Notes under the pieces: model-generated
What the model saw: the letters and a program-made list of their open reading frames with translations, nothing else
What the model was told of the DNA's origin: nothing
Database searches by the model: none
Position numbers and translations under genes: made by a program
Shown: piece by piece, positions 22,088 to 42,533 of the stretch
Numbering within the stretch: the first letter of the stretch is position 1
Layout: each line of letters starts with the position of its first letter
Source: an uncultured Actinomycetota bacterium
Lineage (GTDB): Bacteria; Actinomycetota; Actinomycetes; Streptosporangiales; Streptosporangiaceae
Direction: 5' to 3'
Assembly: GCA_963795335.1 (NCBI GenBank)
Contig: CAWCHI010000010.1
Coordinates: 453,367 to 517,366 of the forward strand
DNA length: 64,000 bases

Positions 22088-25000
22088 TTGAGTTCTCTGG
22101 GAGCGGGCGTGCGCGTGCGCGGGTCTGGTTACGGGCGGCGGCCGGGGCTGCTGCGACGGATGGGGCGTCACGTGCGCCGGGTCGCTACCGGGACGGGTGT
22201 GCTGGCGCTGGCGGTGCCGATGGCGTGGCCGTCGGGGGCCGGCGGGCAGCACCTGGACTTCCCGTCGGCGTCGTCGGTCCGCTCGGGCGTGGTCCGGCTG
22301 GCCGACTGGGTGGCCGGCGACAGCAGTGCCCCGCCGGCGCTGCCGGTGCAGCAGGCCGGGACCGCCGCGGGCCAGCAGCACGAGGTGCCCGCGGCCAGCA
22401 CGCAAGGCCTGAAGCACGTGACCGGGCACGCCCCGGGCAAGGGCAAGGGTGAGCTGCCGGCCTGGGCGCCGCGCACCCCGGACGGGTCGGAGACCTACAC
22501 GTCGGGTCTAGCCCAGCACGGCTTCGACCCGGCCACCAGCACCCTCGATCAGTCCGGGGCCACGGTGCAGAGCGACCTGTTCAAGAACGCGGACGGGTCC
22601 TTCACCCGCAAGGTGTGGCCGGTGCCGGTCAACTACAAGACCTCGTCCGGGGCCTGGGCGGCGATCGACCCGAGCCTGGTTCAGGGGGCGGGCGGCCGGT
22701 GGCAGGAGCGGGCCAACTCCCTCAGCGTGAACTTCGCCGCGACGGGCAGCGACCCTGCCCTGGCCACGGTGGCCATACCGGGCGGGCCGGACCAAGTTTC
22801 CTTCTCCCTGGCGGGAGCGGGCAACGTGGCCGCCGCGGCGTCTGGTTCGGCGGTCACCTACCCGGGGATCTTGCCCGGCACGAGCGTGACGGAGACCGCG
22901 ACCGCGGATGGGCTGAGTGAGGCGCTGACGCTGTCGTCGGCCGCGGCGGGGAACAGCTGGGTGTTCCCGCTGGACTTGAAGGGGCTGACGGCCACCCTCG
23001 ACAACGGTTCGGTGGACCTGGCCGACGGCGCCGGGAACGTGGTCGGGGTCATCCCGCCCGCGGTGGCCTGGTCGGGCGCGGTGCGGCCGTCCGGCTTCGG
23101 CGCGAACAAGAACACCTCCCAGCTCACCTACCAGCTGGTCACCAGCAACGGCGCCCCGGCGCTGCAGATGACGCTCGACCCGTCCTGGCTGAATGCCCCC
23201 GGGCGGGTCTTCCCGGTCACGGTCGACCCGAGCATCACCATGCCCAACCAGGGCAGCACCTACGCCGAGTCCGACAACGGGAGCCCGGAGACCGGCAACT
23301 ACAGCGGGGAACAGACTGACGACGTAGGTGTCGCTACCTTCGGCAGTGACACCTACAACGACATCACTTTTGTCGACCTGTCCAGCGTCAACACGACCCT
23401 GGCGAACTACCACATCACCTCGGGCTCGCTGATGATGTTCGACTCCTGGGCCGCCCAGTGCTCCAGCCCCATCACAGCGACGGCCTACCAGGTCACCGGG
23501 GCATGGGCGCCCAGCCAGTCGATGACCTACCCCGGCCCCGCCTACGGCACCGCCGACGCGCAGTGGACCGGGACGGCCTCATCGGCCGCCTGCGGCAACA
23601 ACCCCCTCAGCACGCAGCCCGGGGCAGGCAGCTGGGTCAGCCTGGCCTTCAACCCAGCAGGCGTCAGCCTGCTCAACCAGTGGACTGCGAACACGGCCGG
23701 TGTCAGCAACTACGGCTTCGCCGTGCAGACGTCGCTGACCAATCCGAGCCAGGCTGTGCAGTTCGACTCCTACACCGCCACCGGCATCACCGGCTCCCAG
23801 GGCGGCAACTGCACCGGCAGCTGCCAGCCCTACCTGCAGCTGAACTACACCGGGCCCGCCTCCGACATCGCGCCGCAGGTCAACTCGCAGTACCCGCAGA
23901 ACAACGCCAACGCCCCGACGCTGACCCCGGAGCTGCTGGCATCGGCCACCGACCAGGACAGCTACCCGTTCACCAGCCCGCAGTACAAGTTCACCGTCTA
24001 CAACGCGGCCGGCACCACCACGATCGCCACCTCCGGCCTGATCTCGTCCGGCGACTGGACGGTGCCAGCCGGGGACCTGGCCTGGGGCCAGACCTACACC
24101 TGGTCGGTGCAGGCCTACGACGGCGACCTGTACTCACCCAACCCGCAGCTGTACACCTTCACCACCGAGGTACCACAGCCACTAGTGACCTCGCAGCTGT
24201 CGCAGAACCCGTCTGGTCCCGGCTTCAACCCGCAGACGGGGAACTGGACGTCGTCGGTGACCGACGCGCAGGTGCCCACCGTCGGGCCGTCGCTGTCCAT
24301 CACGCGCGATTACAACAGCGCTGACCCGCGGGTCTCGGGGGCGTTCGGCGCCGCCTGGTCGTCGGTTCTCGACATGAAGGTCAGCCCGGGCGAGGACGGC
24401 AGCGCGGGCACCACCGCGACCGAGGTGGTGAACTACCCCGACGGCGAGGAAGTCGGGTTCGGGCTGAACGCCAACGGGTCGTACTCCCCGCCCCCGGGCC
24501 GGTTCGCCACCCTGATCACAGTGTCAGGCGGCGGGTTCAAGCTGACCGACAAGAACGACACCGCCTACCTGTTCACTCAGTCCCTCGGCTCCGGCGTGTA
24601 CGGCATCTCCTCGATCACCGATGCGCTCGGCCGGGCCGAGACGTTCACCTACAACGCCTCCAACCAGGTCACCACGGTCACGTCGGCATCGGGCCGGGCG
24701 CTGACGATCAGCTGGGCCACCCCGTCGGGCGCCAGCTACGCGCACGTAGCCTCGGTGGTCACCCCCGATGCCACCGCCGGCAACGCCTCGACCGCGCAGA
24801 CCTGGACCTACAACTACTCCGGGGACCGCCTGTCGTCGGCCTGCCCGCCCGCCTCGGCCACCGTGTGCACCGCGTACGGCTACACCTCCGGGTCGGACTA
24901 CCCCGACGCGGTAATCGACTCCGGCCCGTACTCCTACTGGCGGATGGACGAGACGTCCGGCAGCACCGCCGCCAGCTCGGTGCTCGCCAACGAGGGCGTG

Positions 25001-28000
25001 GACAGCTCCCAGTACAGCGCGGTGACGCTGGGCCAGGACGCCGGGCCGCTGGCCGGATCGTCGGCCAAGGCCGTCACCTTCAACGGCTCGTCGTCCTACG
25101 TAACGCTGCCGGACAACCTGGTCACGGCGGCCCAGGACCAGACAATCTCGCTGTGGTTCAAGACGACCAGCACGAACGGGGTCTTGTGGTCCTCGTCCGC
25201 CGATGGCCCGGGCAGCACCACGACCAAGAGCTTCAGCCCGGAGCTGTACGTCGGAAGCGACGGCAAGCTGGTCGGCGCGTTCTGGGACGGCACCGCGGGT
25301 GACGCGATGACGTCGGCGGCCGCGGTCAACAACGGGCAGTGGCACAACGCGGTGCTGGCCGACTACGGCAGCGGCCAGACGCTGTACGTCGACGGGCAGA
25401 AGGCCGGATCGCTGTCGAAGGGATTCGCCAGCACCGTCCAGACCAACAGCTTCATCGGCGCGGGCTACCTCGGCGGCAGCTGGCCCGACGAGCCGAGCTA
25501 CAACCCCGGCAGCAGCGCCGGCTACGGCTACAGCTTCAACGGCGACATCGCCGACGCGGCGATCTGGACTCGGCAGCTGTCGGCGGCCGAGGTGACGGCC
25601 CTGTACAGCGCGGGCACCCACCAGGGCGCGCTGCTGACCAAGCTGACCCGTCCGTCCGGCAGCGTCTACGCCCAGGTCAGCTACGACCCCCTGACCAGCC
25701 GGGTCGTAGCCGACACGGACAGCAACGGCGGCACCTGGACGCTGAACCCGCCGAAGGCCCAGGGCACCAGCCAGGCCTGGCTCAGCGCCGTCCTCGGCGC
25801 CAAGCCGGCCGATTACTTCCGGCTGAACGACACCGGCGGCGCCGGTGCGGCCAACCAGGTCTTCTGCTTCTGCACCCGGGACGCCACGTACAACAGCGTG
25901 CAGGAGAACACGGCCGGCGGCCCGTTCGCCGACGCGAACGTCGCCCAGTTCAGCAACGCCAACGACTCCTACCTGGCGATGCCGCAGGAAGACAGCGCCT
26001 CCGGTTCCACCGCCTCAGTCGGGGTGTGGTTCAAGACGACCGGCACCAACGAGGTCATCTACTCCGAGCAGACCGGGGCGATCACCGGCTCGGCTCCGTC
26101 GGCGTTCGACCCGGTGCTGTACATCGGCAAGGACGGCAAGCTGAACGGCGAGCTGTACGACGGGAACTTCACCACCGCTGAGTCGAGCGCGGCGGTGAAC
26201 GACGGCAAGTGGCACTATGCGGTGCTGGCGGCCGGCGCGGGTAACCAGACGCTGTACGTCGACGGGAACGCGCAGGCTACCGTCAACGGCAGTGTTGCCA
26301 GCGAGTCGTGGACGAACATCGACGCCGGGGCTGGCTTCGCGGGCGGATCGTGGCCCGACCTGTCGTCCTCGTCGGTCGCCACGCTCGGCTTCACCGGTGA
26401 CCTGGCGGAGCTGGCCTGGTACCCCTACCAGCTGTCGGCCGCCCAGGTCACCACGCAGTGGAACACGGTCCAGTACGCCACCGGGCTCACCCCGGCCCAG
26501 GTCAACACCGTCACCGACCCCGGCGGCAACACCCTGAGCTGGACCTACGACCTGCTCAACGGCGGGCGCCTGATGTCGCACACCGACGCTGTCGGCGGCA
26601 TCACGTCTTACACCTACAACACCGGTGGCTTTCCGGCGGCCGTCACCGACCCGGACGGTGACATCACCCAGACCGGGTACGACCCGCGCGGCAACAAGGT
26701 GTCCGAGACGACCTGCCAGAACCAGGCCGCCAACGAGTGCTCGACGTCCTACTGGTCGTATTACCCCGATGACACCTCCGCCCAGCTGACGACGCCCGAC
26801 CCGCGCAACGACCAGGTGCTGACGTCCTCCGACGGCCGGTCGGCGTCCAGCACGGACACCACATATCAGACCTCGTACACCTACGACACGCTGGGTGACC
26901 TGACTAAGGTGACGACCCCGCCGGTGAGCGGGTACCCGTCGGGTCGGTCGACGACTTACCTCTACACCAGCGGCACCACGGCCGGCGGCTACAGCGGCAC
27001 GGTCCCGCCCAAGGGCCTGCCCTACCAGGAGACGACCCCGGGCGGCGCCGTCACCACCACCTTGTACTACGCCGACGGTGACGTCGCCCAGGTCACCGAC
27101 CCGGACGGGCAGAGCACCCTGTACACCTACGACGGGCTCGGCCGGAAGAGCAGCCGGACCGTCACCTCCACCACTTACCCCTCCGGCCTGCTCACCAGCT
27201 ACACCTACGACGCCAACGGGAACCTGTCGACCGAGACCGACCCGGCCACGACCGATGCGGTCACCGGCGCGGTCCACACCGCGAAGACGACCACCACCTA
27301 CGACCCCGACGGTGACGTGCTGACTACGTCGACGGCCGACCTGACCGGGGGTGACGCGACCCGCACGGTCACCAGCACCTACAACTCTTTCGACCAGCTG
27401 GCCACCCAGACCGACGCGGCCAGCGCCAAGACCACCTACAACACCTATGACGGGTACGGGAACCTCACGGAGGAAACCGACCCGGACGGCAACATCACCC
27501 AGTACACCTACGACGGCAACAGTCACCTGCTGACCACCACGCTGGAGAATTACACCGGTTCCCCGCCCGGCTCGCAGCAGGCCGCCCCGCTGACGGAGGA
27601 GTCCCGCGCCTACGACCCGGCTGGCCGGCTGGCGACGGTGATAGACGCGATGGGCCGGATCACCCGGTACTACTACACCGACAACGGCCTGGTGACAGGG
27701 GTGGATCATTTCAGCCCGGACTGGTCGCAGTCGTTCTACACCGAGTGGGACTCCTACGACGGGGCCGGCAACCTGATCGAGCAGTGGACCAACAGCAACT
27801 GGTACACCGACACCCGTTACACCGTGGACGCCGCCGACCGGGTCACCCAGCAGGTGACCGACCCGTCCGGCCTGGACCGCACCAGCGCCATCAGCTACAC
27901 GCCCGACGACCAGCAGGCGAGCGTCACCGACAGCGGCCCGGACGGGGTCTCGAGCACCACCTCCTACACCTACGACCCGGCGGGCAACGAGCTGTCGCAG

Positions 28001-31000
28001 TCGGTCACCGACCCGGGGTCGGGTGGGCCAGCCGCCTGGTACAACCTGAACCAGTCCTCTGGCACGGCGGTCCCGGACGCGATCGGTGGCGGGCAGCCCG
28101 CCACCGCGTCCGCGGTGACCTGGGACGGCACCGAGGGCACGTTCAGCGGCAGCTCCGGCAGCCAGGTCGCCACGGCCGGCCCGGTCCTGGACACCACCGG
28201 CTCGTTCACCGTCGCGGGGTGGGTGAACCTGGCCGCTAACAACCTGGGCCACCCGCAGGTGCTCGCCTCGCAGGCGGCCGGCACCGCCAGCGGCTTCACC
28301 TTGGGCTTCGACCAGGCCAGCGGGGACTGGCAGTTCGGCCGGGCGCTAACCGACACCGCCAGCCCGTCGTACGCCAACGCGAACTCCACCGCGGCGGCGG
28401 CCACCGGGACCTGGGTGTTCCTGGCCGGGGTGTTCAATGCCAACACCGGTGCGATGACCCTGTACGTCAACGGCGCCTCCTCCGGGACCGCGACCGACAC
28501 GTCCCCGGTCGCAGCGCACGGCCCGTTCACGATCGGCAGCGCCAAGACCGCCGGGGCGCAGGGCGACTGGTTCGACGGCAAGGCCAGGAACGTGCAGGTC
28601 TACCCGCGGGCCCTGTCGGCGGCCGAGGTCACCACCCTGTACGGCGGCGGCAGCGGCACCAGCGACGTCACTAACAGCGCACTGACCACCAGCTGGACCC
28701 GCGACCAGCGCGGCCTGCCCACCTCGGTGACAGACGCGGACGGCGCCGTCACCGGCTACGTCTACGACCAGGCCGGCCAGCTTACCCAGACCAACCTGCC
28801 GATGGTCACCACCCAGGTCTACGGCGGGTCCCCGGTCACCGCGCACCCCCAGACGCTGACCGGCTACGACACCTTCGGTGACGTCGCCGAGAACGAGAAC
28901 GCCAACGGCAACGTCACCACCGACCACTACGACGCCGACGGGCGGCAGACGTCGCAGACGCTGCCGAGCTACACCCAGCCCGGAACCTCGACCGTGATCT
29001 CCTCGGTCACCACTACCGTCTACGACGGCGACGGCCTGGTCACCTCGGTCACCGACGGGAACAACAACACCACCAAGTTCGGCTATGACCAGCTCGGCAA
29101 CCAGGTGACCGACACCGCCCCCGACAACAGCGTCACCACCACGTCCTACGACACTGACGGGGAGCCGCTGTCGGTCACCGGGCCGACCGGCGCCCAGACG
29201 GACACGACCTGGGATTACATGGGCCGCAAGCTGACCTCCACCCAGGTCGAGCGCTACACCGGCTCGGGGACCGCCAGCTACACCACCAGCTACGCCTACA
29301 ACGACAATGCCGGCGGCTGGCTGTCGCAGGAGACCAGCCCGGACGGGGTCACCACCAAGTACGCCTACAACACGATGGGCGAGCAGGTCTCGGTGACCGA
29401 CGGCGCCGGCAACACCACCGGTTACGGCTATGACTCGCTCGGCCGCCAGACCAAGGTGACCTACCCGGACGGGACCGCGACCAAGACCGGGTACGACGGT
29501 GCCGGCAACGTCACCTCGGCCACCAAGCTGGACTCTTCTGGCACCACCCTGTCGACGACCTCGGCGGCCTATGACGGTAACGGCGACCAGATCTCGGAGA
29601 CCGACGCGGCCGGCAACAACAGCACGTTCACCTACGACCGGACCGGGCTGCTGACCCAGGAGGTGCAGCCGGTCTCGGCGACCAGCGGGATCACCACGTC
29701 GTTCGGTTACGACGCGGCTGGCAACCAGACGCGGTACACCGACGGCAACGGCGGCCAGTGGTGGGACACCTACAACAGCTGGGGCCTGCAGGAGTCGCGC
29801 GTCGAGCCGTACACGAGCACGTACAACACGGCGGCGACCTCGACGTTCACCACCGCCTATGACGCCGACCAGAACCCGGTCACGCTGACCGAGCCGGGCA
29901 GCTCTCCCGTTATGGTCACTGACACCTACAACAAGGTGGACGAGCTGACCGGCCAGTCCGGCAGCGGCGCGGACGCGGCCACCCCGGCCCGGACGTTCGG
30001 CTACGACACGGCCGGGAATATGACGTCGGCGTCGACGTCGAACACCCTCGGCACGGGGTCCAACGCGACCAGTGAGACATTCACTTACAACGACCGCGGC
30101 GACGTGCTGACCGCGACGGGGACGGGCGGGTCGAGCACGCTCGCCTACAACGGCGACGATCTGCTGTCCTCGGTGGCCGACGCAGCCGGCACCACCTCGT
30201 ACACCTATGACAATGCCGACCGGTTGTCGACGCTGGCGAACCCGGTGACCGGGGCGACGGCGACGTACTCCTACAACCCCGAGTCGCAGGTGTCGGGGAT
30301 CAGTTACGGGTCGGGGAAGGACAGCCAGTCGTTCGGTTACGACACCCAGCACCGGCTGACCAGCGACACCCTGAAGACCAGCTCGGGGACCACGGTGGCG
30401 TCGGAGTCTTACGGCTACAACTCCGACAGCGAGATCACCTCGGAGAACACGACCGGGCTGGCCGGGGCGGCGTCAAACACTTACACCTACGACGAGGCCG
30501 GCCGCCTGACGTCGTGGAACAACGGCACCACGACGGCCAATTACGCCTACGACAGCAACGGCAACCTGACCAGGAACGGGACCAAGACCCTCACTTACGA
30601 CGCCCGCGACGAGCTGACCGGCGACGGGACCAGCACCTATACCTACACCGCCCGTGGCACGAGCTCGTCTGAGCCGGGTCCGGGTGGCCCCCTGGGCGTG
30701 AGCTCGGATGCGTACGGCGACCAGATGACGGCTGGCACCCGGGGTTATGCGTATGACGCGCTCGGCCGGCTGACCGGCGACACCGTGACAGGCGGCCCGA
30801 ACTTCGCCTTCACCTACGTCGGCTCGGCCGGGACTCTGGCCTCGGACGGCTCGTCGGCCTACACCTGGGATCCCTCTGGCGGCATGCTGGTGGGGGCGGG
30901 CGCGGTCGGCGGCGGCACGGGTGGCGTGCAGGTGCTGACGGACTCCCACACGAACATGACCGGCCAGTTCACCGCGGCCGGCACCAGCATCTCCGGGTCG

Positions 31001-32816
31001 AAGGCGTATGACCCGTGGGGCACGGTCACCGCGACGACCGGGACGCCGGTGGGGTTGCTGGGTTACCAGTCGGCGTGGACGGATGCGGCGGCCGGGAAGG
31101 ACCTGATGGGGGCCCGCTGGTATGACCCGTCGGCGGGGGATTTCACTTCCCGGGACACGGTGGTGGTGGCGCCGGACCCGGACCCGGTGGCGGGTAACCC
31201 GTTCGCTTATGCGGGAGATGAGCCGCTGGACCTGGTCGACCCGACCGGGCATGCGTTCGAGACCCCCGGTCATGCGGCTGTCAACGATGCGCATGTCACG
31301 ACGACTGCCAGGACGGCCGCCCGTTCCCCGGTCCGGACGGGAAACGCGGTGAGCACGGTCTCGTCGGTTGAGCGCACGGTCAGTGCCCTGAAGACCGCTG
31401 CGGCTAAGGCAACCGCGGCCAAGGCCAAGCCGGCCCCGGCCCAGAAGACCGCCGCCGCGAAGTCCACGGCGAAGAAGACCAGCACCGCGACGTCTGCCGC
31501 TATCGCGTCCGCTCAGAACAGGGCCCGTTTGAATCTCCTGGCCAAGGCGGCAAGGTCGGCGACCTACTCTGCGGCATATGACGGCGCCGACACATACCAT
31601 GTGCAGACGACAAGTGCAGGCACGGGGGAGCGCACGTCGGCGACCCCGCGAGCCCGGCCAGTCCGGGGCTGTCTTCGCGTCCGGCTGCTCTCAGACCCTA
31701 AGCAAGCTCGGTTCATGCCCAGCCGAACGGGACGCCGCCGGCACCACCGCCGCCGAGCAGAAAGCGGCCTTCAAGGGCGCGCTTTGGGTAATCGGAGGCA
31801 GCATCCTCGGCCCTGCCGTCGAGGCAGCCGCCGGCCTGTTCGGAGCCGGGGACGCCGCGAGTGAGGCGGCCACCGTCCCCGAAACCGCCACTGCCGACTC
31901 CGGTGCCGGTGCCAGCGACGAGCCGACGTCTTGCGTGATCCCTGGCGGGAACAGTTTCACCGCCGGGACCCTGGTCCTGCTCGCCTCCGGCAAGGCCGAG
32001 CCCATCAGCGTGCTCAAGACAGGCGACAAGGTCGTGGCCAACGACACCAAGACCGGCCGCGACCAGCCCGAGGCGGTCACCGCCGTTCTCGTCCACCATG
32101 ACAACAACCTCTACAACCTCACCGTCAAGACCAGCCGCGGCACCGAGGTCGTCCACACGACCAGCAACCACCTGTTCTGGGCTCCTTATCCGCACTACGG
32201 CTGGATTCCGGCAAATCACCTCAAACCGGGCATGCATCTCAAGACGCCGGACGGCCAGCCGGCCATCGTGGTCGGGGGCTCGGTCCCGGCCGATCACGAC
32301 GGCTGGATGTGGGACCTCACCGTCCCCGGCAACAACGACCACGACTTCTATGTACTCGCGGTCGCTGCCAACACAAAAAGCACAGGGGGCACTGGAACAC
32401 TTATCCTTGTCCATAACGCAAACGGACCAGAGTGTGGCGATCAGTTGTCGCTCTTCGACGAAGAGCCCTACCGTTCTACTGCAAACGACGGCAAGACTCG
32501 AGGGATACTTGAGATTGACGGCGAGGAGATCCCGCTGACCTCGCATGGGCCGGATCCGGAAAACTATATCGCGAGCGGACATGTTGAGGGACAGGCCGCC
32601 CTTATTATGCGAGAGCGTGAAGCTGCAAGTGCTACACTTTGGATAGATAACCCGAATGGCATCTGCTCGTACTGCACGGCCCAGGTGCCAACGCTGCTTC
32701 CCGAGGGTGCGTCGCTCGACGTGCAAGCACCGCTTGGCACTGTTCCTAGAGATCCGACCTGGAGCAATAGCAGGATATTTATAGGGAACACCCGAGACCC
32801 CCTGTCGCCTGGATAG
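22088..32816 (+). CDS. Giant secreted RHS/YD-repeat polymorphic toxin: three LamG domains, RHS core, Hint domain, C-terminal DddA-like deaminase (frameshift near 31650 joins ORFs 22088-31864 and 31578-32816)
   Basis: Signal-like N-terminus; dense YD repeats; LamG signatures (YWRMDE, WFKT, VNDGKWH, LYVDG); GARWYDP and PLDLVDPTG core; SCVIPGGNSF...LILVHN Hint; HVE...CSYC deaminase. Confidence 0.85.
31932..32417 (+). other. Pretoxin Hint (intein-like autoprocessing) domain
   Basis: C..NSFTAGTLVLLASG, HTTSNHLFW, WIPANHLKPG, MWDLTV..NHDFYV-like block, terminal LVHN. Confidence 0.9.
32418..32816 (+). other. DddA-like (SCP1.201 clade) cytidine deaminase toxin domain
   Basis: NY..SGHVEGQAALIMR, NPNGICSYC, TLLPEGA and FIGN..DPLSP parallel Burkholderia DddA (GHVEGQSALFMR, NPEGTCGFC, TLLPENA, FTGNSNSPKSP), as recalled. 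Confidence 0.88.
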
Positions 32817-32848
32817 CGGCGTAACCGCATAAAGAATACGGGATGTAA

Positions 32849-33247
32849 ATGGAAGTATCATGGGTAGCAAGTGAACCGGGCTCTGGCCGCCTCTCCGCGT
32901 TCCGGTATTCCGGTGTGGAGGACTACGTCTCCAGGATGGAGGAGCTCTTGGAGTTGGGCGAGGGATATTCCGAGGTAAGTCGCGGCGATCAGCTTTACCC
33001 GCGCGTGAGCCTAACTTTCAGGGCCAATTACGGGGTAGTCGCGCATTGGCAGTCAAGCGATCGAATACTGCTCCTGCTGGGCGATGGCATAATCCCCAAG
33101 GACGCAAGGGTATCAGTCCCTGAATTGGAGGGCGACGCGGTATATACTGGCGCCTTTGTGTCAAGTCGGCAGCGTGCTTGGGATGCGGTCAAGAAGTTTA
33201 TCGGATCGGGTTCCGTTGATGAGCTAGGTCAATGGGTTGAGTTGTGA
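32849..33247 (+). CDS. Cognate immunity protein, Imm1/DddI-like
   Basis: Small low-GC ORF right after the toxin; YPRVSLTFRANYGVV, AWDAVKKFI and terminal WVEL resemble DddI/Imm1. Confidence 0.75.
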   Translation: MEVSWVASEPGSGRLSAFRYSGVEDYVSRMEELLELGEGYSEVSRGDQLYPRVSLTFRANYGVVAHWQSSDRILLLLGDGIIPKDARVSVPELEGDAVYTGAFVSSRQRAWDAVKKFIGSGSVDELGQWVEL

Positions 33248-33646
33248 GGCGGCATGATGGCGTTCGGGTGCGGCCTTGCCAGGTCGTTTCCCGGAAGCGT
33301 GCCCGATCGCGGTGACGAGCAGAGCGATGTTGGCGTCGTCGATGCCGGTGACGGTGTCGCGGAGGCTGACGGGGGTGCCTGCGGCGAGGCTGGCTGCTAG
33401 CTGGAGGATGCGGCGTTCGCCTCCGGAGCACGGGAGGTTTCCGCTGGTGAGGGCGGTGACGGCGGCGTGCCAGTCGATGGCGGCCATCGGGGCGCCGTCG
33501 CTGGTGCCGTGGTCGATGAACTTTCCGGTGAAGTCGTCGCGGTGCAGGAACGTGCCGTTGCTGATGAGCAGTTCGGTGCCTGCTTCGAGCGGGTAGAGGC
33601 CGGCGGCGCAGGCGCGGAGGGCTGCGGCCAGGTCGTCAGTGTTCAC
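33224..33646 (-). CDS. Conserved accessory protein of the recombinase module (orf3)
   Basis: Overlaps the stop of the large recombinase; near-identical paralog at 39504-39890 and a fragment at 38240-38373. Confidence 0.8.
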   Translation of the reverse strand: MNTDDLAAALRACAAGLYPLEAGTELLISNGTFLHRDDFTGKFIDHGTSDGAPMAAIDWHAAVTALTSGNLPCSGGERRILQLAASLAAGTPVSLRDTVTGIDDANIALLVTAIGHASGKRPGKAAPERHHAASQLNPLT

Positions 33647-36113
33647 GGGGGCCTTCGGCGGTGAGGGTGGTGGCGGCGATGTCGCGGTAGGCGGGGATGC
33701 CGAGGTGGACGTGCTGGGCTCGGCGGGCGGCGGTGGCGTCGGCCTGGGCGATTTTGCTGGTGGCGGCGGCGAGGCTGACCTTGAGTCCTTCGGCTTCGCC
33801 GGTCCAGCCTTCGCGTTCGGCTTCGGCGATGCGGGCGTGGAGGTTGTCGCGGATCTCCTCCAGGCGGTGGCGCTGGGCGGGGTCGATGCGCAGGAGGGGG
33901 CATCGGATGCAGGAGTGCTCGTGGATGCAGGGGGTTGAGTAGGCGCGTCCGCAGTCGCCGAGCGCGACGCGGCGGCGCTGGAAGTGGCCGAGGAACTCGT
34001 CCCACTCGGCGTCGGTGGGGGTGCGGTACTCTTCGCTCGGCCGGGCGGCCCTGCGCTGGGCGATGAAGGCGCGGTGGCCGCGGATGGCCTCCTCGGGGTA
34101 GACCGCTTTGTAGCCCATCGTGGTGTTTATGTCCTCGTGTCCGAGTATGAGCTGGGCGATGTGCGGGGGCATGCCGTTGAGGATGGCGTCGGTGGTGAAG
34201 ACCCTTCTGAAGTCGTGGGGCCAGAAGGTGAGGGGCTTGCCGTCGGTGCCGGTGATGCCGGAGGCGGCGAGCGCGCCGGTCAGGAGGTGGCGGATTCCGT
34301 CGGCGGAGATGGGGCGGTTCTCCAGGCCGACGACCCGCTGGAACAGCAGGGGCATGGGCGGTTTCCAGGTGCGCTCGTGCGGGTCGTAGGCGGGGGTGAG
34401 CGGGACGGTCCCGCTGGCGCCGCGGACGCGGGTGATGATGGCGGACAGGGCGTCGGCGAGCTCGGGGCCGATGACGAGGAGGCGCTCGGCGTCTTTCTTG
34501 GACGGGGCGATCGACAGCAGGGGGACCAGCTCGCCGGCTGAGGGGAGCCGGTACTGGACCAGGCTGTGGTGGGAGAGCTCTGTCAGCTCCTCGACGCGGA
34601 CGCCGGTGTGGCGCAGGACTTCTATGGCGGCCCAGGCCCAGAACGCGCTGTCCTCCTCGCGGGTCAGGTCGCGGCGGGCGCCGGTGCCGGGGTCCTCGGC
34701 CCAGGCGCGGGGCGTGGGCTTCTGGGTGCCGGCGCGGCGGAGCCGCTGCCCGGCGGCGGTGAACAGCTCGCCGGGCCCGGCGGCGAGGGCGGCCTCCAGC
34801 CGGGCGGCGGCGTCGGTGCGGGCGCGGCCGGCGGCGGCGGCGAGGGCGGGCAGGACGGGGAGCCGCTCGCGGGTCCGGGCGTCCATGCGGGCCTTGGTCC
34901 GCGACTTCTGCTTCTTGTACTGGATGTCGCTGGCGCGGATGGGGCAGGGCACGGCCCACGGTCCCCAGCGGGCGGGGTCGTCCAGGGCCCACTGGGCGAG
35001 GTCGAGGTAGAACGCCCGGATGATCATCAGGTTGTCGTCGGCGGACTCGCGGGCGACGGCCTGCTCGCCGCCGCCGGGAGTGCGGATGGTCCGGGTCCGC
35101 AGGCGCTTCTTCCATGCGGCGGCGACGGCGGGCGCCAGGTGCAGGGAGCTGATGCCGGGGTGGTGGGCTTCGAGGTCCTTCCAGAAGCACGGGACGAGGG
35201 CCGTGGCCAGCTTGACGAGGGAGTTGTAGTCGATGCCGGGCTGGCGCTCGCGCAGGTAGTCCGCGAGCAGGTCCCGGACCGGCCGGCAGGCGATGCCGTA
35301 CCGGTCGATGAGCTGCTCAGCACTCTGCTGCCCGGCGAACTGGGCGCCGATCATCCGGACCGTGGCCGGCGCGGCGGGCGGGAACGCCCCGGCGGCGTGC
35401 AGGAGCTGGTAGAAGAACGGGCTGGTCCGCCTGGAGCTGGTGCCGTCGCCGGCGGCCTGCCGGGAGCAGTCCAGCAGCTCGATGCAGTCGCCGGGGGTGA
35501 TGTCGGCGACGAGGCCGCCCTTGGCGGCCATGATCACCGCGATCCGCTCGACCGCCGGGTCGAACGTGGCGTTCCCGACGGTGGCCTGCTTGCGCAGCTC
35601 CCGCAGGGCCGCGATCCCGGCGGGGTCCCGGAGCCGGCCCATCTCGTCGGCGATCCTGGCCGGGGCCGGCGTCGTCAGCAGCCAGGCAAGGCCCGGGCGG
35701 AGGACGTCGCCGCCGATCAGCTGGGCCATGCCCGCCCCGAGCCTGGGGTGCAGGCCCGTGCCCAGGGGACCGGCCCGGCCGGCGGCCCGCAGGTCTGCCA
35801 CTGCCTGGTCCCGCCAGTCGCCGGGACCGCCGGCCCCGGCGCCGGAGGAGTCCCACCGCTGCTGCCACGTCGCGCCGGGGTGCAGCTCCAGCCAGTCGAG
35901 GATCTTCAGCATGGACAGCTTGCGCCAGTGCCGGGCGCTGGCGTCGCCGAAGGCGAACGGCGCGGCGAGCAGCCGGCGCGCCACCGTGAACCGGTCCGCG
36001 GCCGTCTCCGGCCACGATTCAGGGACCGGCCGGGGCGGGAACCTGGCCAGCACCGCCGCCGCCTGGGCGCTGAGCTGCCGGGCAGCCGTCCCGGCGGCGG
36101 CCGGGGCGGTCAC
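33636..36113 (-). CDS. Large tyrosine recombinase (Tn554 TnpB-like position)
   Basis: LRHTGVRVEEL, PHDFRR, LGHEDINTTMGY, C-terminal CxRxxxxPCxHEHxCxRC; GTG at 36113 overlaps the upstream TGA. Confidence 0.9.
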   Translation of the reverse strand: MTAPAAAGTAARQLSAQAAAVLARFPPRPVPESWPETAADRFTVARRLLAAPFAFGDASARHWRKLSMLKILDWLELHPGATWQQRWDSSGAGAGGPGDWRDQAVADLRAAGRAGPLGTGLHPRLGAGMAQLIGGDVLRPGLAWLLTTPAPARIADEMGRLRDPAGIAALRELRKQATVGNATFDPAVERIAVIMAAKGGLVADITPGDCIELLDCSRQAAGDGTSSRRTSPFFYQLLHAAGAFPPAAPATVRMIGAQFAGQQSAEQLIDRYGIACRPVRDLLADYLRERQPGIDYNSLVKLATALVPCFWKDLEAHHPGISSLHLAPAVAAAWKKRLRTRTIRTPGGGEQAVARESADDNLMIIRAFYLDLAQWALDDPARWGPWAVPCPIRASDIQYKKQKSRTKARMDARTRERLPVLPALAAAAGRARTDAAARLEAALAAGPGELFTAAGQRLRRAGTQKPTPRAWAEDPGTGARRDLTREEDSAFWAWAAIEVLRHTGVRVEELTELSHHSLVQYRLPSAGELVPLLSIAPSKKDAERLLVIGPELADALSAIITRVRGASGTVPLTPAYDPHERTWKPPMPLLFQRVVGLENRPISADGIRHLLTGALAASGITGTDGKPLTFWPHDFRRVFTTDAILNGMPPHIAQLILGHEDINTTMGYKAVYPEEAIRGHRAFIAQRRAARPSEEYRTPTDAEWDEFLGHFQRRRVALGDCGRAYSTPCIHEHSCIRCPLLRIDPAQRHRLEEIRDNLHARIAEAEREGWTGEAEGLKVSLAAATSKIAQADATAARRAQHVHLGIPAYRDIAATTLTAEGPREH

Positions 36114-37318
36114 CAGCGGCCCTTCCCGAACAGCACGTCCAGGCTCTCGGGCCGGTAGCCCGGGGCTGGCTCGGGCAGGACCGGCCGGCGCTCGGCCTGC
36201 CGCCGGTGATGGGCGAGCGTGGCCTCGATGACGTCCTCGGCTGTCGGGTTGACGTAGATTTGCGTGGTTGTGAGTGAGGCGTGGCCGAGTACCCATTGCA
36301 CGTCGGTGATCGGCATGCCGGGATCACGGGCGAGCCGGTAGGCCGCCGTGTGCCGCAGCGAGTGCAGTGACCACCCGGAGCCGACCGCGGCGTTCGCCCG
36401 GTCGAACATCATCCGGGCCGCGTTGTAGGCCAGCGGCCGGAACGGCCGCCGCAGCGTCCACCACAGCGGGTCGTCCGCCCTGGCCGGGACCAGGCCGTGG
36501 ACCTCCTGCTGGTAGAGCCGCAGCCACACGAACGCGTCCGGCGACGCCGGGAGCGCCTGGATCGCCTGCGATCCCTTGCGGATCACCGTGATGAGCTGCT
36601 GGCCGGGGTCGGCGCCCGACCGCGTGACGCCCAGGAGCTCCGATGCCCGTGCGCCGGTGGAGACCCAGAACGCGACCAGCGCCCGGTCCCGGTTCGACCC
36701 GAGCCCGGCGAACAGCTCGTTGAACACGCTGTCGGGGATCTGCCGGGGAACCGTCTTGGGGACTCTCGGCCGGAACAGGCCGGACTTCCGCCGCGGGAAC
36801 GGGTCCAGCGGGTTCTGATGCGCGTGCGCCCGCCCCGCCCTGGCCAGCGGGAACGGGTTCACGATCGGCCCGGTCCCGGCCTCCAGGTGATAAGCGTAGA
36901 AGCTCCGGCATACCGTCTCGCAGTGCGCCACCGTCGATGGCGCGAACCTTGCCGAGGCCGGGCGCTTCCCCGGCACCGACCTGCGCTCTGCCCTCATCCG
37001 CCCGGGCTTGCCGGCGAGCTGGAGCCACCGGCAAAAGTCCCGGGCCTCGGCCCTGGTCGCCTGATTCCACGGCACCTCCACTGCCCACGTGAACCGGCAC
37101 CAGCGCAGCAGCGCCAGCGAATACGAGCGCTGCGTCGTCGCGGGCCGCCCGGCCGCCTGCAACTCCCGCAGGTACTCCGACACCGGGCCGACCGGGACGC
37201 CGTCAGGATCGCTAAGGTAGTACGGCTCCCACAGGTCGCCCGTCTGGACGAGCCTCCCGGCGGCCGGGACCACCAGTGACCCGAGGTCCCGGGCCGAGTC
37301 CGTGTCTCTCCCTGTCAT
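36110..37318 (-). CDS. Tyrosine recombinase/integrase (Tn554 TnpA-like position)
   Basis: SAM-like N-domain (TQRSYSLALLRW), STGARASELL, LHSLRHT, LGHASLTTTQIY. Confidence 0.92.
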   Translation of the reverse strand: MTGRDTDSARDLGSLVVPAAGRLVQTGDLWEPYYLSDPDGVPVGPVSEYLRELQAAGRPATTQRSYSLALLRWCRFTWAVEVPWNQATRAEARDFCRWLQLAGKPGRMRAERRSVPGKRPASARFAPSTVAHCETVCRSFYAYHLEAGTGPIVNPFPLARAGRAHAHQNPLDPFPRRKSGLFRPRVPKTVPRQIPDSVFNELFAGLGSNRDRALVAFWVSTGARASELLGVTRSGADPGQQLITVIRKGSQAIQALPASPDAFVWLRLYQQEVHGLVPARADDPLWWTLRRPFRPLAYNAARMMFDRANAAVGSGWSLHSLRHTAAYRLARDPGMPITDVQWVLGHASLTTTQIYVNPTAEDVIEATLAHHRRQAERRPVLPEPAPGYRPESLDVLFGKGRW

Positions 37319-37404
37319 GGGAGCCGACCGTAACCACCACCCTCTCAGCGTGTCCGGAGGTTGATGACCGAAGTTTCGTTAGTGCGGTCAACACGCCTTC
37401 ACTG

Positions 37405-37893
37405 AACTACGGCTGGATTCCGGCAAAAAACCTCAAACAGGGCATGCATCTCAAGACGCCGGACGGCCAGCCGGCCATCGTGGTCGGGGGCTCGGTCCCG
37501 GCCGTCCACGACGGCTGGATGTGGGACCTCACCGTCCCCGGCAACAACGACCACGACTTCTACGTGTCCGTCGGCTCCGGTGACGTTGCCGCCTCGATCT
37601 TGGTTCATAATGTAGGCGGGATATGCCCTACGAACGGTTCGCGCATGTCGGTGAATGACGCGCTCGACACCGCTGAGCAGTATCTTGGAGAGGGATATCG
37701 GGAGTCCGTTCCGGGAAGTGGCCGGTACGTTTCCTCCGACGGAACGCGAGTGGTTCGAATGGGGGAATCTGATATCACTGGCGCTCATGGTGGGGGTCCG
37801 CATATGAACTTCGAGGAACTCGCACCCAACCCGATGAAGCCAGGAAAGATGATGGTGACCGTTAATTCACACGTTTACCTCATCGATCCGTAA
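37405..37893 (+). pseudogene. Orphan toxin cassette 2: Hint C-half plus putative nuclease toxin tip (37612-37893)
   Basis: YGWIPAKNLKQGMHLKTPDG...LVHN, then ALDTAEQYLGEGY...SSDGTRVVRM...HGGGPHMNFE; lacks the RHS body. Confidence 0.8.
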
Positions 37894-37918: not shown

Positions 37919-38176
37919 ATGGAAAGGACCGTGAAGATCGGGCGTTATGATGACTCCGGCCTCCATCTGGAGTGGTCCCAGGGATTCGAAATAAGTGTTA
38001 CGGAGAGTCAAGGAGAAGTTGTCATCCGGGCAAATGAGGCAGGGCTAATATCCTTGGCCCAGCATCTTCTTACCTTGGCTGATCATGCTGTCCCGGCCGG
38101 TTCGCATATTCATATGGACGCATCACGTGAACTGGAGGAAGAATCGCTGGACCTTGTCCTTGAGCGCATGACATGA
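37919..38176 (+). CDS. Immunity protein for cassette 2 (Imm32-like)
   Basis: GGAGG RBS; IRANEAGLISLAQHLLTLA...GSHIHMD...LEEES pattern; follows the toxin. Confidence 0.7.
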   Translation: MERTVKIGRYDDSGLHLEWSQGFEISVTESQGEVVIRANEAGLISLAQHLLTLADHAVPAGSHIHMDASRELEEESLDLVLERMT

Positions 38177-38239: not shown

Positions 38240-38373
38240 TTGAGTCGTTCCCGGCCGTGCAAGATTGATGTGACCAGTCGCGCAATGCTGCCGTCGTCGA
38301 GGACGGTGACGGTGTCGCGTAGGTCGACGGGGATGCCTGCGGCGAGGCTGTCTGAGAGCTGAAGGATGCGCCG
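38240..38373 (-). pseudogene. 3' fragment of an orf3 paralog
   Basis: Translates RRILQLSDSLAAGIPVDLRDTVTVLDDGSIARLVTSI, homologous to the C-terminus of 33224-33646. Confidence 0.75.
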
Positions 38374-39060
38374 TTAACCATCAAGACCACGCACAGCGCC
38401 GAGGTCATCCACACCACCGCCGGCCACCTGTTCAGGGATCCTTATCCGCACTACGGCTGGATTCCGGCAAAACACCTTAAACCGGGCATGCATCTCAAGA
38501 CCCCGGACGGCCAGTCGGCCATCGTGGTCGGGGGCTCGGTCCCGGCCGATCACGACGGCTGGATGTGGGACCTCACCGTCCCCGGCAACAACGACCACGA
38601 CTTCTATGTCTTTCCTTCTCAAGCCGACGGCAGTGATGATGGCGCATACCATGTCACACAAGGCGACGTCGCGGTCCTCGTCCATAACGACAGTTGTGGT
38701 GTCACGCCTCGTGACGGCGGTGGTGAAGATGCGAACGGAAACTTCATCTCTGGTTCTGCGGATGGGCAGAATTTGGCCGGTCAACTGCGTGGAGAGAGCG
38801 CTAATTCCGTCTTCAATGAAGATGGCCGTCTTTCGCAAGGGGCCATCGATAATTCCCAGAAAATCATCGACGGCGAGGACATCAATAACCCGGCTGTCCG
38901 AGAGTATTTCGAGAGCAACGGTGGGGCGGCCCAGTGGGGCAAGTACTCCACTGGGACATATCAAAGTCCGTATGGGCCATTCCAGGTCCATTACTATATG
39001 AACGAGGAGACAGGGGAAATCATGGAGTACGACTATAAAGCGGTAATGAACCGGAGGTAG
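38374..39060 (+). pseudogene. Orphan toxin cassette 3: partial Hint plus putative BECR-fold RNase/tRNase tip (38689-39060)
   Basis: LTIKTTHSAEVIHTTAGHLFRDPYPHYGW...LVHN, then INNPAV...WGKYSTGTYQSPYGPFQVHYYMNEETGEI..YDYK. Confidence 0.75.
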
Positions 39061-39063
39061 GAG

Positions 39064-39447
39064 GTGCGGGTTCGATTCATGGGGGTAGGCGACCTCGGTC
39101 AGCGCGAGGCCCGGGGGAGTCAGGTGCTCGAGGTGGGCGCACAGTATCCGGTTCTTGAGGTCTATGCGAAATCCGGAAAGAGCAACATGCTGCGTATTGA
39201 GTATTCGGATCGCGAGCTTCCTGCCCTTTATGACTCGCGCATGTTCGAGGTGGTATCCGAGCGTATTCCGGCAGACTGGTGCGTCACCTCGGGCGTTGCT
39301 GGTTCCTTGAAATTTGGGCCTCGCTCCTGGACTGCTCCTGGCTTCTGGGAAGCTTTCATGGATCGGGAACCATGGGCAGTTGACGTCTATCATGAAGGCA
39401 GGATTGAGTCAATTCGAGATGCGCAGGATGTTATCTTAACGATTTAA
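39064..39447 (+). CDS. Immunity protein for cassette 3
   Basis: Starts 3 bp after the toxin stop; low GC; YPVLEV, PALYDSRMFEVV, PRSWTAPGFWE. Confidence 0.7.
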   Translation: MRVRFMGVGDLGQREARGSQVLEVGAQYPVLEVYAKSGKSNMLRIEYSDRELPALYDSRMFEVVSERIPADWCVTSGVAGSLKFGPRSWTAPGFWEAFMDREPWAVDVYHEGRIESIRDAQDVILTI

Positions 39448-39503: not shown

Positions 39504-39890
39504 CTACTGGCTGCCGCTGTTTTGTGGTCGTTTCCCGGAAGCATGCCCAATCGCGGTGACGAACAGAGCGGTGTTTGCGTCGTCGAGGCCGGTGACGGCG
39601 TCGCGGAGGCTGACGGGGGCGCCTGCGGCGAGGCTGGCCGATAGCTGGAGGATGCGCCGTTCGCCTCCAGAGCATGGGAGGCCGCCGGTGTCGAGTGCGG
39701 TGATGGCGGCTTCCCAGTCGATGGCGGCCATCGGGGTGCCGTCGCTGGTGCCGTGGTCGATGAACCTGCCGGTGAAGTCGTCGCGGTGGAGGAACGTGCC
39801 GTTGGCGATCATGAGCTCGGTGCCGGCTTCGAGCGGGAGCAGGTCGGCTGCGCAGTTGCGGAGGGTGGCGGTGAGGTGGTCAGTGTTCAT
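39504..39890 (-). CDS. Second full copy of the orf3 accessory gene
   Basis: Highly similar to 33224-33646 (PLEAGTEL..NGTFLHRDDFTG..DHGTSDG..MAAIDW..LPCSGGERRILQL). Confidence 0.8.
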   Translation of the reverse strand: MNTDHLTATLRNCAADLLPLEAGTELMIANGTFLHRDDFTGRFIDHGTSDGTPMAAIDWEAAITALDTGGLPCSGGERRILQLSASLAAGAPVSLRDAVTGLDDANTALFVTAIGHASGKRPQNSGSQ

Positions 39891-39984
39891 GGGGGCCTTC
39901 GGCGGTGAGGGTGGCGGCGGCGATGTCACGGTAGGCGGGGATTGATCTGCTCCGAGCTTTCCGGACAGCGGATTTTGGATTAAT

Positions 39985-40896
39985 TCACGCTGCGGACTGC
40001 TGTTCCACGTATTCGTCGTGGACTTGTTGCGGGGTCCGGTACTGAAGTCCGGAGTGCCGACGCTTGGAATTGTACCAGAATTCGATGTACCTCACAACGT
40101 CCCGGCGTGCATGCTCACGCGTCGGATACTCGGTGCGGTGGACCCGCTCGTTCTTCAAAGCGGCGAAGAAGGATTCGGCCATTGCATTGTCATAACAGAT
40201 GCCGGTGCGGCCGACAGACTGACGAATGTTGTGCTTCCTCAGGGTCCCGGCGAACTCACGTGACGTGTAATTACTGCCGCGGTCGGAGTGAAAAACCGCA
40301 CCAGCAGCGAACCGGTAGTTGCGTGCAGCCATTTCGATCGCCCGCTCGATGAGCGGAGTCCGGTAGTTATCGCCTGTCGCCCAGCCGGTCACCGCCTTGG
40401 TATGGCAGTCAATAACCGTCGCCAGGTAGAGCCAGCCCTGCCATGTCGGGATGTACGTGATGTCACCGACCATTTTCTCCCCCGGTGCGCCGGCGGTGAA
40501 ATCCCGCTGCACGCGGTCGGGGATGGCGTGCTCCTGGCCGTCGCCCTCCGTCAGGCTGAACCGCCACGGCCTGGGCTGGCAGGCCTCGAGGCCCAGCTCA
40601 CGCATCACCGAGCGCACGAGCTCGGGACCGGCGGGCACGCCCCAGGCCGCGAGGTCGGCGTGGACCCGCCGGTACCCGTAGGTCCCGTCCGACTCGTCGA
40701 ATGACTTCCGCACAATACAGGCGATCACCACGCGCCTTTTCGCTGTCGCTGATTCCGGCTTGTCCCGCCACTCATAGAACCCTGAGCGTGAGACCTCCAT
40801 CCACCGGCACATTTTCACGACCGACGGCACATGACTATCGCCCGATTCCTGGTAAGCCGCATACTCCGCGTCGATGAACTCGAATTTATCGGTCAC
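39985..40896 (-). CDS. IS3 transposase OrfB (DDE)
   Basis: YGYRRV, GDITYI, YLATVID, FHSDRGSNY, CYDNAMAESFF, YNSKRRHS. Confidence 0.95.
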   Translation of the reverse strand: MTDKFEFIDAEYAAYQESGDSHVPSVVKMCRWMEVSRSGFYEWRDKPESATAKRRVVIACIVRKSFDESDGTYGYRRVHADLAAWGVPAGPELVRSVMRELGLEACQPRPWRFSLTEGDGQEHAIPDRVQRDFTAGAPGEKMVGDITYIPTWQGWLYLATVIDCHTKAVTGWATGDNYRTPLIERAIEMAARNYRFAAGAVFHSDRGSNYTSREFAGTLRKHNIRQSVGRTGICYDNAMAESFFAALKNERVHRTEYPTREHARRDVVRYIEFWYNSKRRHSGLQYRTPQQVHDEYVEQQSAA

Positions 40897-41183
40897 CGAT
40901 GGTCGCGGGCGAAGTACGCCGCGGCTTTTTTCAGGAAATCGTTCTCCATCTTGAGTTCCCGGTTTTCCCGCTCGACCTCACGCAGACGCGCACGGTCAGT
41001 CACGGAAAGCGGCGGCTCCTCGCCAGCATGCTCACGACGGTAAACAGCCACCCAGTTCCCGAGGGTGCCCTCGTTAATACCGAGCTCTTTCGCCACCTGG
41101 GCAATCGGACGCGACGTCTCGATCACCATCTTCACGGCTTCGTCCCTGAATTCTGGCGAGAAGCTTTTCTTCGGTCGGGGCAA
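40893..41183 (-). CDS. IS3 transposase OrfA (HTH), with A6G -1 frameshift motif
   Basis: FSPEFRDEAV, AQVAKELGI, ENDFLKKAAAYFA; AAAAAAG on the minus strand near 40925. Confidence 0.93.
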   Translation of the reverse strand: MPRPKKSFSPEFRDEAVKMVIETSRPIAQVAKELGINEGTLGNWVAVYRREHAGEEPPLSVTDRARLREVERENRELKMENDFLKKAAAYFARDHR

Positions 41184-41421
41184 GTTTTCAACCTTTCCAG
41201 ATAGTCCATCCTAATGGACGGACTGTCCGGAAGCCTCGGGGCACCTCAGATGCCGAGGTGGACGTGCTCGGCTCGGCGGGCGGTGGTAGCGTCGGCGTGG
41301 GCGATTTTGCTGGTGGCGGCGGCGTGGCTGACCTTGAGTCCTTCGGCTTCGCCGGTCCAGCCTTCGCGTTCGGCTTCGGTGATGCGGGCGTGGAGGTTGT
41401 CGCGGATCTCCTCCAGGCGGT

Positions 41422-41454
41422 TGATCTGCTCCGGGCTTTCCGGACAGCGGATTT
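41422..41454. repeat. Solo IS3 terminal inverted-repeat copy
   Basis: TGATCTGCTCCGGGCTTTCCGGACAGCGGATTT differs by one base from 39943-39975. Confidence 0.85.
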
Positions 41455-41606
41455 GTTGCTGGCGGCGGCGAGGCTGACGCGGAGTCCTTCGGCTTCGCCG
41501 GCCCACCCTTCGCGTTCGGTTCAGCATAAGGGGACGTACATATGGCCCGTATCCTCTGTCCGATTCTTTATGGAGAATCGCAGCGTGAAAGCCATTGGCG
41601 GCTGTT

Positions 41607-41921
41607 GTGGCGAATGATTACGGGTACTCGACCGAGGATTTTCGGTTCAGGGTCCTCTCAGATGCATCGGACGATCTGTCCGGTGTCTATGAGGTCTGGT
41701 GGCAGGCCAACGCCTTGTAGCCTGAGTGGCCGTTGAGCCGGCGTCTCCAGTTGGCTGAGGATGCTGTGGCCAGGCTTGTGCGTGACGGTCTGGTCAGGCT
41801 GTACCAGGGGGATTGGAAGACGGCCGGTAGCCATCCGGTATCACTCGACGAGACGGAAGCGGTGTTGCGCGCGTGGGACACGTGGGCGATTCCTGATGGC
41901 CCGCATGTGTTCTTGTTGTGA
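41607..41921 (+). pseudogene. Degenerate small low-GC gene (orphan immunity-like) with in-frame TAG at 41718
   Basis: VANDYGYSTEDFRFRVLSDASDDLSGVYEVWWQANAL*PEWPLSRRLQLAEDAVARLVRDG... Confidence 0.5.
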
Positions 41922-42533
41922 CGCAGGAGGGCATTGCCATCCTGCAGAGCGGGCAAGGCTGAACGGCCGGCATCTGACGACGGTCCCGTTTGAGCGGTAA
42001 GAGGGAGACGCCCAGTAAGCGCAAGTATTGTCATTTAAGCTGTGCCTGTTGGTTCTCAGACAAGATGATGCTTTCGACGAGGCCGAGATTCTCCCTGAGG
42101 AAGGAAGTGGGCTTGCAGGTCACGCAATGAGCGGACATGCAGACCGCAAGGCAGCGAGTGCTATCAGGCGTCCTAATGGGCGCTCGCTTCCCGACTGATA
42201 GCCAACGCGGGCAGCCGGGAGCGCTGCAGAAAACCGCCGGACCGCCGGGCTGACCGGGATACCACGGTCTGTCCCGCCAGAATCTATACGCACACCGATC
42301 GACGCGAATGGGAGTTCGCGTACTTTATGCAAAATACTCAGTCTGGGGATGATCTGGCCACAGGCAGTGCGGCAAGCTAGGCCAGAGATTAACTCTGCTG
42401 TAGGTCGGCTGCCGCCGGGTCCGCCCCGGCGGTCGGGCACGCGCCAGCCACGCCTACGGTAGAAGACAGCGTCCGCCCGCGCGTTCCCGCGCTGCGGCGG
42501 GCGGCCCGCACGGTCTTCACGCAGGAGAGTGAC

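Follow-up and report, generated by a model that had tools for sequence, protein, structure and literature searches.

The window analysed here is a 64,000-nucleotide (nt) stretch of contig CAWCHI010000010.1 (positions 453,367–517,366, forward strand; assembly GCA_963795335.1) from an uncultured soil bacterium of the Streptosporangiaceae, and it contains a polymorphic toxin locus in which an RHS body and a Hint domain are followed by a DddA-like toxin tip and a pair of tyrosine recombinase genes. The segment spanning 32186–37395 is probably a Tn554-like element that has its right end within the Hint coding sequence and inserts at the CC of the W-D-P codons through its own recombinases. What was seen in the sequence comprises the two ends, a 2-nt overlap, the cargo, a single clade at one codon, covariation of the arms and both the active and the displaced states of the toxin tip. 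We also favour, with good though somewhat lower confidence, the proposal that this Tn554-like clade is dedicated to the delivery of toxin tips, with an arm kept in the Hint code and co-evolving with the left arm, RecA-independent re-arming of the host toxin and an archive of immunity genes.

The locus contains an RHS body, a Hint domain, a variable tip, a downstream immunity gene and orphan tips, as expected of an RHS-Hint polymorphic toxin locus, with a break in the reading frame that is discussed below (Table 1). An earlier note on this DNA had described a repeat flanking the recombinase genes and had proposed that a tyrosine-recombinase element integrates within Hint and swaps the toxin tip. 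The sequences quoted in that note were found at 32194 and 37406, and they belong to a repeat of 160 bp with 96% identity and a spacing of 5212. The content given for the intervening segment was likewise confirmed, namely a PT-HINT/DddA-like open reading frame (ORF), a downstream gene of 132 amino acids (aa), orf3 and two Phage_integrase genes. The similarity was said to start at ACTAC, which did not hold, as the CCTT at 32184/37396 is also common to both copies. The comparison with relatives ruled out ACTAC as the crossover and moved it to the CC located 8–10 nt upstream, the spacing still being 5212. The displaced arm TTCACTGAACTA (37398–37409) matches the right-end consensus at 11 of 12 positions and encodes the Hint residues P-S-L-N-Y, and the displaced tip 2 is open for 165 codons counted from the Pro codon.

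The ends of the element were defined from its recombinase family. In the genome collection, 359 relatives of IntA were confirmed, and 79 of these loci were fetched for comparison. A conserved left end (L) is present about 75 bp upstream of intA across the family, and the ordinary members have a right end (R), TTCTCTGAACTW in the orientation of the window, mostly within about 1.3 kb after intB. In 41 non-Hint elements with both ends, L consists of TAGTTCAGTCAACA followed by 2 nt and R of TTCTCTGAACTW, and the overlap of 2 nt is identical on both sides in 26 of them. The family ends are imperfect inverted repeats (TAGTTCAG / CTGAACTA), and in the window the element's right end within Hint (R′) finishes with 8 bases that repeat the left arm perfectly in inverted orientation (8/8). 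When inspected by eye, the ordinary members were located mainly in transposase genes and also in each other's intB or orf3, and the ordinary family appears to target other transposases. Among L028, L029, L036, L040, L043, L047, L050 and L051, some occupy one transposase codon, preceded by L-V-Y/H and followed by V-N-T, in both orientations, and others occupy one codon between V-P-V-P and E/R-V. From their motifs, we take the former targets to be Tn3-type and the latter to be IS21-type transposases. At the IS21-type targets, as in the L001/L012 inversion described below, the target dinucleotide appears from the sequences to end on the R side. The consensus of the targets in the wider family is weak, about G-T-C-x-x around the overlap. 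A recurrent insertion site for related elements is present near codon 738 of intB (L010, L012, L028, L042, L085, L104 and L174), and nested self-targeting occurs also at sites within orf3. A small unrelated gene is located between intB and the right end at 13701–14400 of L029 and in L043, L051 and L040, and the capture of cargo at this place is common.

The right end of the Hint-linked elements was found at a different place. With the right-end matrix, eight Hint-embedded arm 12-mers scored between +4.7 and +18.7 while eight 12-mers from arm-less Hints scored between −10 and −38, and the right end of the clade, as read from these sequences, is written into the Hint codons after W-D-P. Nine clade members that were not chosen by their flank had a readable left flank; eight of them (the window, L002 twice, L012, L069, L156, L158 and L159, the last two assigned to the clade by 94–97% DNA identity and not by the tree) meet a Hint C-half at one and the same Pro codon, and the ninth (L001) is inverted. 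In an IntA tree of 101 rows, all 24 Hint-linked rows were placed on one branch with a Shimodaira–Hasegawa-like support of 98, and their IntA identity to that of the window ranged from the mid-70s to 100%. None of the 66 other rows with a readable flank adjoins Hint, and 11 rows were too short to class. Furthermore, a scan of metagenomes for the L-Hint junction yielded 44 stretches, in which nearly all of 43 loci run on into a Hint C-half that is mostly followed by a toxin-like tail. Thus, the support that the earlier note had predicted, relatives that end at the same Hint codon with differing toxin cargo, was found.

The same note had named, as a case that would speak against it, a second end right after orf3, as in an ordinary transposon that landed in an orphan cassette. 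For the present family, this would be a Tn554-like transposon that ends just after orf3, the match within Hint being a matter of chance. The sister elements L003, L004, L008, L009 and L010 (IntA identity 78–82%) are indeed ordinary, the right end lies shortly after orf3 in L003, L004 and L008, and in the L001/L012 element a truncated half of the former right end is still present after orf3. However, the family right end was absent within 1.5 kb after intB in the window, L001, L002, L012, L042 and L069, and neither a right end nor a Hint N-half is present between immunity gene 1 and orf3. With the same codon used throughout the clade, the arms covarying and the Hint arm used in a recombination event (both described below), such a chance landing is hardly credible for the present element, and it probably describes its ancestor.

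Position 5 of the arm, which can be T, C or G, allowed the pairing of L with the right ends to be followed. In all 11 full units, L matches its own R′ located 4.2–5.3 kb away, whereas it matches the adjacent displaced R′ in 8 of 38 junctions. This pairing with the distant and not the adjacent R′ fits insertion at CC, while a recombination event inside the Hint half would give the reverse. The 8 matches among 38 adjacent arms are fewer than the roughly one third expected, which might reflect a bias towards sites occupied by another subtype. The L001/L012 inversion carries L, intA and codons 1–738 of intB; L with its CC is joined to intB, intB with GC is joined to the Hint arm, and the inversion site in intB is also used by other family members. 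Judged from these joints, the Hint arm is a participant in a recombination event. Further arms joined to internal element sites were observed in L085 and L094.

These observations bear on an alternative in which the role of the recombinases is limited to the excision of circles, or they are passengers, and in which homologous recombination by the host within the common Hint C-half exchanges the tips, in line with the circle model of Jackson 2009. This is conceivable as the 160-bp Hint half is 95–96% identical between copies, some junctions such as that of the third Hint copy lie away from CC, and tips have been exchanged on the downstream side of the arm as well, since members of a single toxin family, with 84–88% identity, occur behind different arm types. 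A crossover in the Hint half would, however, place L by its own R′, which is opposed by the distant (11 of 11) versus adjacent (8 of 38) matches given above. In addition, the L-CC of L156 adjoins a Hint half of a different type without an arm, and the identity between L156 and L123 begins at the CC base itself. The breakpoint is fixed at CC beside the recombinase end, with a minority of variable junctions, a pattern different from that of homologous displacement, in which core fragments vary in length and no integrase takes part. We therefore consider host recombination an unlikely account of the junctions at CC, and insertion by the element's own recombinases remains the preferred reading.

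The active and the displaced states of the tips were both observed. In L156, the RHS frame is open for 3399 aa and continues through an arm-type Hint into the toxin, with the element next to it, and L-CC is directly joined to the armless Hint half of the other type. From its sequence, L156 looks like a first insertion into an untouched Hint gene. The module that is active in L156 and displaced in L123 is 98.7% identical over 1213 bp, from CC onward to the contig end, and upstream of it lies the Hint N-half in L156 and the L end of another element in L123. Further active/displaced pairs were found, three with 84–88% and one with 73% identity. Homologues of toxin 2 and immunity gene 2 (83% and 77%) are in the active position in L175, behind an arm-less Hint, and contigs in the soil runs X2 and X13 have a Hint N-half joined to a displaced-type half exactly at 37396. 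Among the arm-less Hints L200–L205, none of the six has element genes downstream, one of them with only 2.6 kb available. Run X1 contains joins of 32181/32198 to 37506, which were judged to be repeat artefacts.

The cargo of the clade is highly diverse. The 11 full units are 4.3–5.3 kb in length, and those with intact frames have one tip and one main downstream ORF; tip frames are broken in 3 of the 11. The earlier note had treated the recombinase pair and orf3 as a set, which applies to all but one of these units, from which orf3 is absent. The 68 tips formed 50 clusters at 90%, while a 40% threshold gave 44 families, and elements that are 96–97% identical over intA bear different tips. In L001, intB is 94–100% identical while orf3 is 81% identical. 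These near-identical recombinases with differing cargo, together with the contrast between intB and orf3 in L001, suggest that cargo has been reshuffled between elements. The tips of L156 and L123 and those of L086, L099, L100, L111 and L124 include what we take, from motifs, to be an ADP-ribosyltransferase-like and several deaminase-like domains.

The earlier note had proposed an in-frame fusion of the RHS body to the tips, but the RHS body ORF (22088–31864) and the Hint-toxin ORF (31578–32816) are in different frames, the change being located between about 31290 and 31675, and neither tip is therefore in frame with the RHS body in this assembly. Three apparent frameshifts (45.2–47.0 kb, by eye) were also noticed in two sugar-metabolism genes at 44225–47395, which are presumably nucleotide-sugar dehydrogenase-like and epimerase-like. 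Because of these, the RHS frame break is likely to be an assembly error arising from uncorrected long-read errors.

The broken RHS or tip frames in the window, L069 and L159 would suit a purely selfish element acting by the same recombination mechanism, for which Hint is a safe site, the frame is restored to spare the host, and the toxin and immunity genes serve as an addiction module, the host toxin being re-armed only as a by-product. The relatives target dispensable transposase genes and each other, and an orphan Rhs acting as a toxin–antitoxin module has been reported in the available part of one study (PMC7043789). On the other hand, 50 distinct tips and a Hint-compatible arm are in line with selection for a functional secreted toxin, L156 has an intact RHS-tip fusion, and frameshifts in these assemblies also affect recombinase genes. 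We regard a purely selfish role as very unlikely, and delivery of toxin tips as the better description of the clade.

Several observations weigh against insertion and tip delivery as proposed here. The IntA tree was made with FastTree only, rows of less than 270 aligned residues and duplicates being left out, and the clade sample unchosen by flank has only nine members. The pattern used for the metagenome scan included Hint bases, and the scan thus speaks for recurrence only and not for exclusivity of the target. The 11 full units fall into about five subclades, which brings the independent count of matching arms nearer to five, and L090, a 1.5-kb deletion hybrid, has mismatched arms. The immunity gene–orf3 junction is at no fixed base, though near the former right-end position, and for this reason the loading of new toxins is unexplained by the model. 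No element lies within 9 kb of the arm-type Hint in L206, and the arm-less first Hint in L001 is followed, about 3 kb downstream, by element remnants. The arrays also contain non-site-specific junctions (the third Hint copy of the window; L001, L090 and L097). Finally, neither an L-CC-R′ circle junction nor the empty site of this strain was seen in six runs, all of which consisted of contigs from other samples; none of the 24 runs with matches contained half of the sequence words, and no RNA data set was among them.

The occurrence of the element was narrow. Of 43 other genomes from the genus, 14 contained IntA relatives of any subtype, and five of these contained Hint-linked units (G179, G419, G421, G423 and G426). 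Besides the genome of the window, the L-Hint junction pattern matched 1 of 400 family genomes, which is from the same genus, and the Hint-site pattern matched 1 of 250 order genomes, at a Hint-like site without an arm. Among the samples searched, the Hint-linked element was seen in one mostly uncultured genus and in soil and peat metagenomes. Viral contigs gave 14 pattern matches, none of them with element genes. A second copy of the element was not found elsewhere in the window's own genome, where only remnants at the locus itself were seen.

Table 1. Features of the toxin locus and of the inserted element, in positions of the window.
Feature	Position	Strand	Remarks
RHS body; RHS repeats, three LamG domains, DUF6531	22088–31864	+	3′ end of the ORF out of frame
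Host Hint N-half, last codons H-L-F-W-A; left flank of target	31938–32183	+	
Left crossover, 2-nt overlap CC, first two bases of the Pro codon	32184–32185	.	
Right end of element R′ TTATCCGCACTA, in Hint codons P-Y-P-H-Y	32186–32197	+	R-matrix score 15.1
Element-borne Hint C-half, up to H-N	32186–32417	+	
Toxin 1, DddA-like deaminase tip	32418–32816	+	PF14428; DddA structures, E 1.5e-18
Likely immunity gene 1 (132 aa)	32849–33247	+	Assigned from position
orf3, 140 aa, in the TnpC position	33224–33646	-	
IntB, long tyrosine recombinase, about 825 aa	33636–36113	-	PF00589
IntA, tyrosine recombinase, 402 aa	36110–37318	-	PF00589
Left end of element L TAGTGCGGTCAACACG; family consensus TAGTTCAGTCAACAGG	37380–37395	.	
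Right crossover, 2-nt overlap CC	37396–37397	.	
Displaced tip 2: R′ arm of earlier element (37398–37409), Hint C-half, toxin 2	37398–37893	+	
Immunity gene 2 (Imm32)	37919–38176	+	
orf3 remnant of earlier element	38244–38375	-	
Third Hint part and toxin 3	38376–39060	+	Hint copy 38377–38609, starts upstream of crossover
Likely immunity gene 3	39064–39447	+	Homologue (80%) follows a tip in L104 and in L113
orf3 copy and intB 3′ remnant of earlier element	39504–41435	-	Split by IS3-type transposase, 39985–41183

The remaining features of the locus are collected in Table 1. The inventory in the earlier note was right for the main genes and had missed the third Hint copy as well as the orf3 and intB remnants after immunity genes 2 and 3. 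Because the third Hint copy starts upstream of the crossover, it does not represent a site-specific junction. The translations of IntA and IntB contain R..K..HxxR..H..Y, which we take to be the tyrosine recombinase motif, and the GC content of the cargo is 0.56 versus 0.73 for the recombinase core. Immunity gene 1 has no Pfam or NCBIfam match, and in L069 its homologue (78%) is located 3′ of a toxin 1 homologue. The toxin 1 (59–76%) and immunity gene 1 (78%) homologues at about 729–1466 of L069 and at 14273–15010 of L163 are separated from the element by about 8 kb on its downstream side and are not preceded by a Hint match. The orf3 product gave no Pfam or NCBIfam match, no similarity to TnpC was shown for it, and its predicted structure (predicted local distance difference test score of 45.5) was too poor for a fold search. 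A promoter scan at the left end with the sigma-70 consensus, the only one used, found none. The insertion sequence of the IS3 type within the intB remnant spans 39944–41248 and has a 91% copy on contig C5. The low-GC stretch at 41560–42040, beyond the last intB remnant, may contain a further decayed immunity gene, and a gene at 47498–48856 resembles what we take to be the Pup ligase PafA, consistent with an actinobacterial host.

Integrative elements such as e14 in icd bring a replacement end of their target gene and restore its frame. The protein that such elements restore is nearly unchanged, whereas the replacement end found here encodes a different toxin and the arm used for recombination is at the same time coding sequence. 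With 92% of its length aligned, IntB of the window is 55.4% identical to the long recombinase of plasmid NC_008270. This plasmid is listed in Table 2 of Van Houdt et al, 2012 (PMC3414803), in a subgroup described there as without a TnpC-related third gene. The Tn554-like actinobacterial transposons of that study have adjacent short (about 350–400 aa) and long (611–828 aa) tyrosine recombinases in one direction, and the recombinase pair of the window (402 and about 825 aa) shares this layout as well as the kinship of IntB to NC_008270. The element differs from them, as far as the available passages of that paper go, in that its right end is recoded into Hint and the target gene receives a new 3′ end from the cargo; the same passages give no ends, targets or toxin cargo. 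The swapping of tips proposed in the earlier note was supported by the sequence comparisons, while the recombinase pair belongs to the known Tn554-like family and is not new.

Tn554 and the SE elements also have imperfect inverted ends, and copy-out to a circle has been proposed for both (PMC10214605). In the parts of that work available, however, the footprint is 6 bp versus the variable overlap of 2 bp in our 41 elements, the SE elements have four core genes including Tfp while three genes without Tfp lie between cargo and left end here, and no replacement 3′ end is described. As the 6-bp footprint is not shared, we consider that the element of the window works like Tn554 and the SE elements but do not file it among them.

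The displacement of tips in Rhs and type VI secretion system (T6SS) loci resembles our locus in that a new tip is placed in frame while the old tip and its immunity gene are shunted downstream into arrays. In the passages at hand of two studies, this displacement is attributed to homologous or homology-facilitated recombination with no integrase known (PMC2935791, PMC5361080); a circular intermediate was proposed by Jackson 2009 (PMC2935791), and Kirchberger 2017 (PMC5361080) remarked on a likeness to integrons with no evidence for an integrase. Here, by contrast, each tip moves together with a recombinase pair of its own, and the break falls at a single fixed dinucleotide. Similarly, rAID and the XerC/D-adjacent polyimmunity loci have a tyrosine recombinase by arrays of conflict genes (PMC12247911, PMC3482391). 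They collect immunity genes under one recombinase, and the recombinases beside their arrays are not described in the available text of these sources as changing the toxin, whereas here a whole element enters the toxin gene and changes the toxin. A published description of recombinase-driven tip replacement was not found in the full-text literature searched, most subscription papers and supplements being outside its coverage.

The observations can be arranged into a working model. By analogy with Tn554 and the SE elements, excision or copy-out would produce a circle joined as L-CC-R′, and transfer between cells would take place by some vehicle. IntA and IntB would then catalyse insertion at the CC of a Hint gene without RecA. 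The RHS body of the host would thereby continue in frame into the carried toxin tip, and the previous tip and immunity gene would come to lie downstream, behind L. The displaced immunity genes may stay expressed, and repeated rounds would result in tandem arrays. The array in the window (tip 2, immunity gene 2 and an orf3 remnant; tip 3, immunity gene 3, orf3 and an intB remnant) could represent older rounds that were later eroded by deletion and IS3 insertion, and cargo and recombinases would be brought into new combinations when related elements recombine.

How polymorphic toxins acquire new tips yet keep the old ones is a long-standing question. On the sequence data presented here, insertion of the element likely gives the host toxin a new warhead. 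The element belongs to a known transposon family, and the replacement of tips through an arm hidden in protein code appears to be the new aspect, one not found in print. Its range, one mostly uncultured genus together with soil and peat metagenomes, sets the limit of this finding. The ends, overlap and targets have now been defined for a widespread actinobacterial transposon family, in one clade of which a recombination arm evolves under protein-coding constraint, and the results point to a pair of recombinases by which C termini are exchanged in frame. If true, integrase-driven tip displacement would be what the earlier Rhs and T6SS papers noted as missing, and with candidate enzymes, both ends and the crossover base named, the displacement of tips becomes testable.

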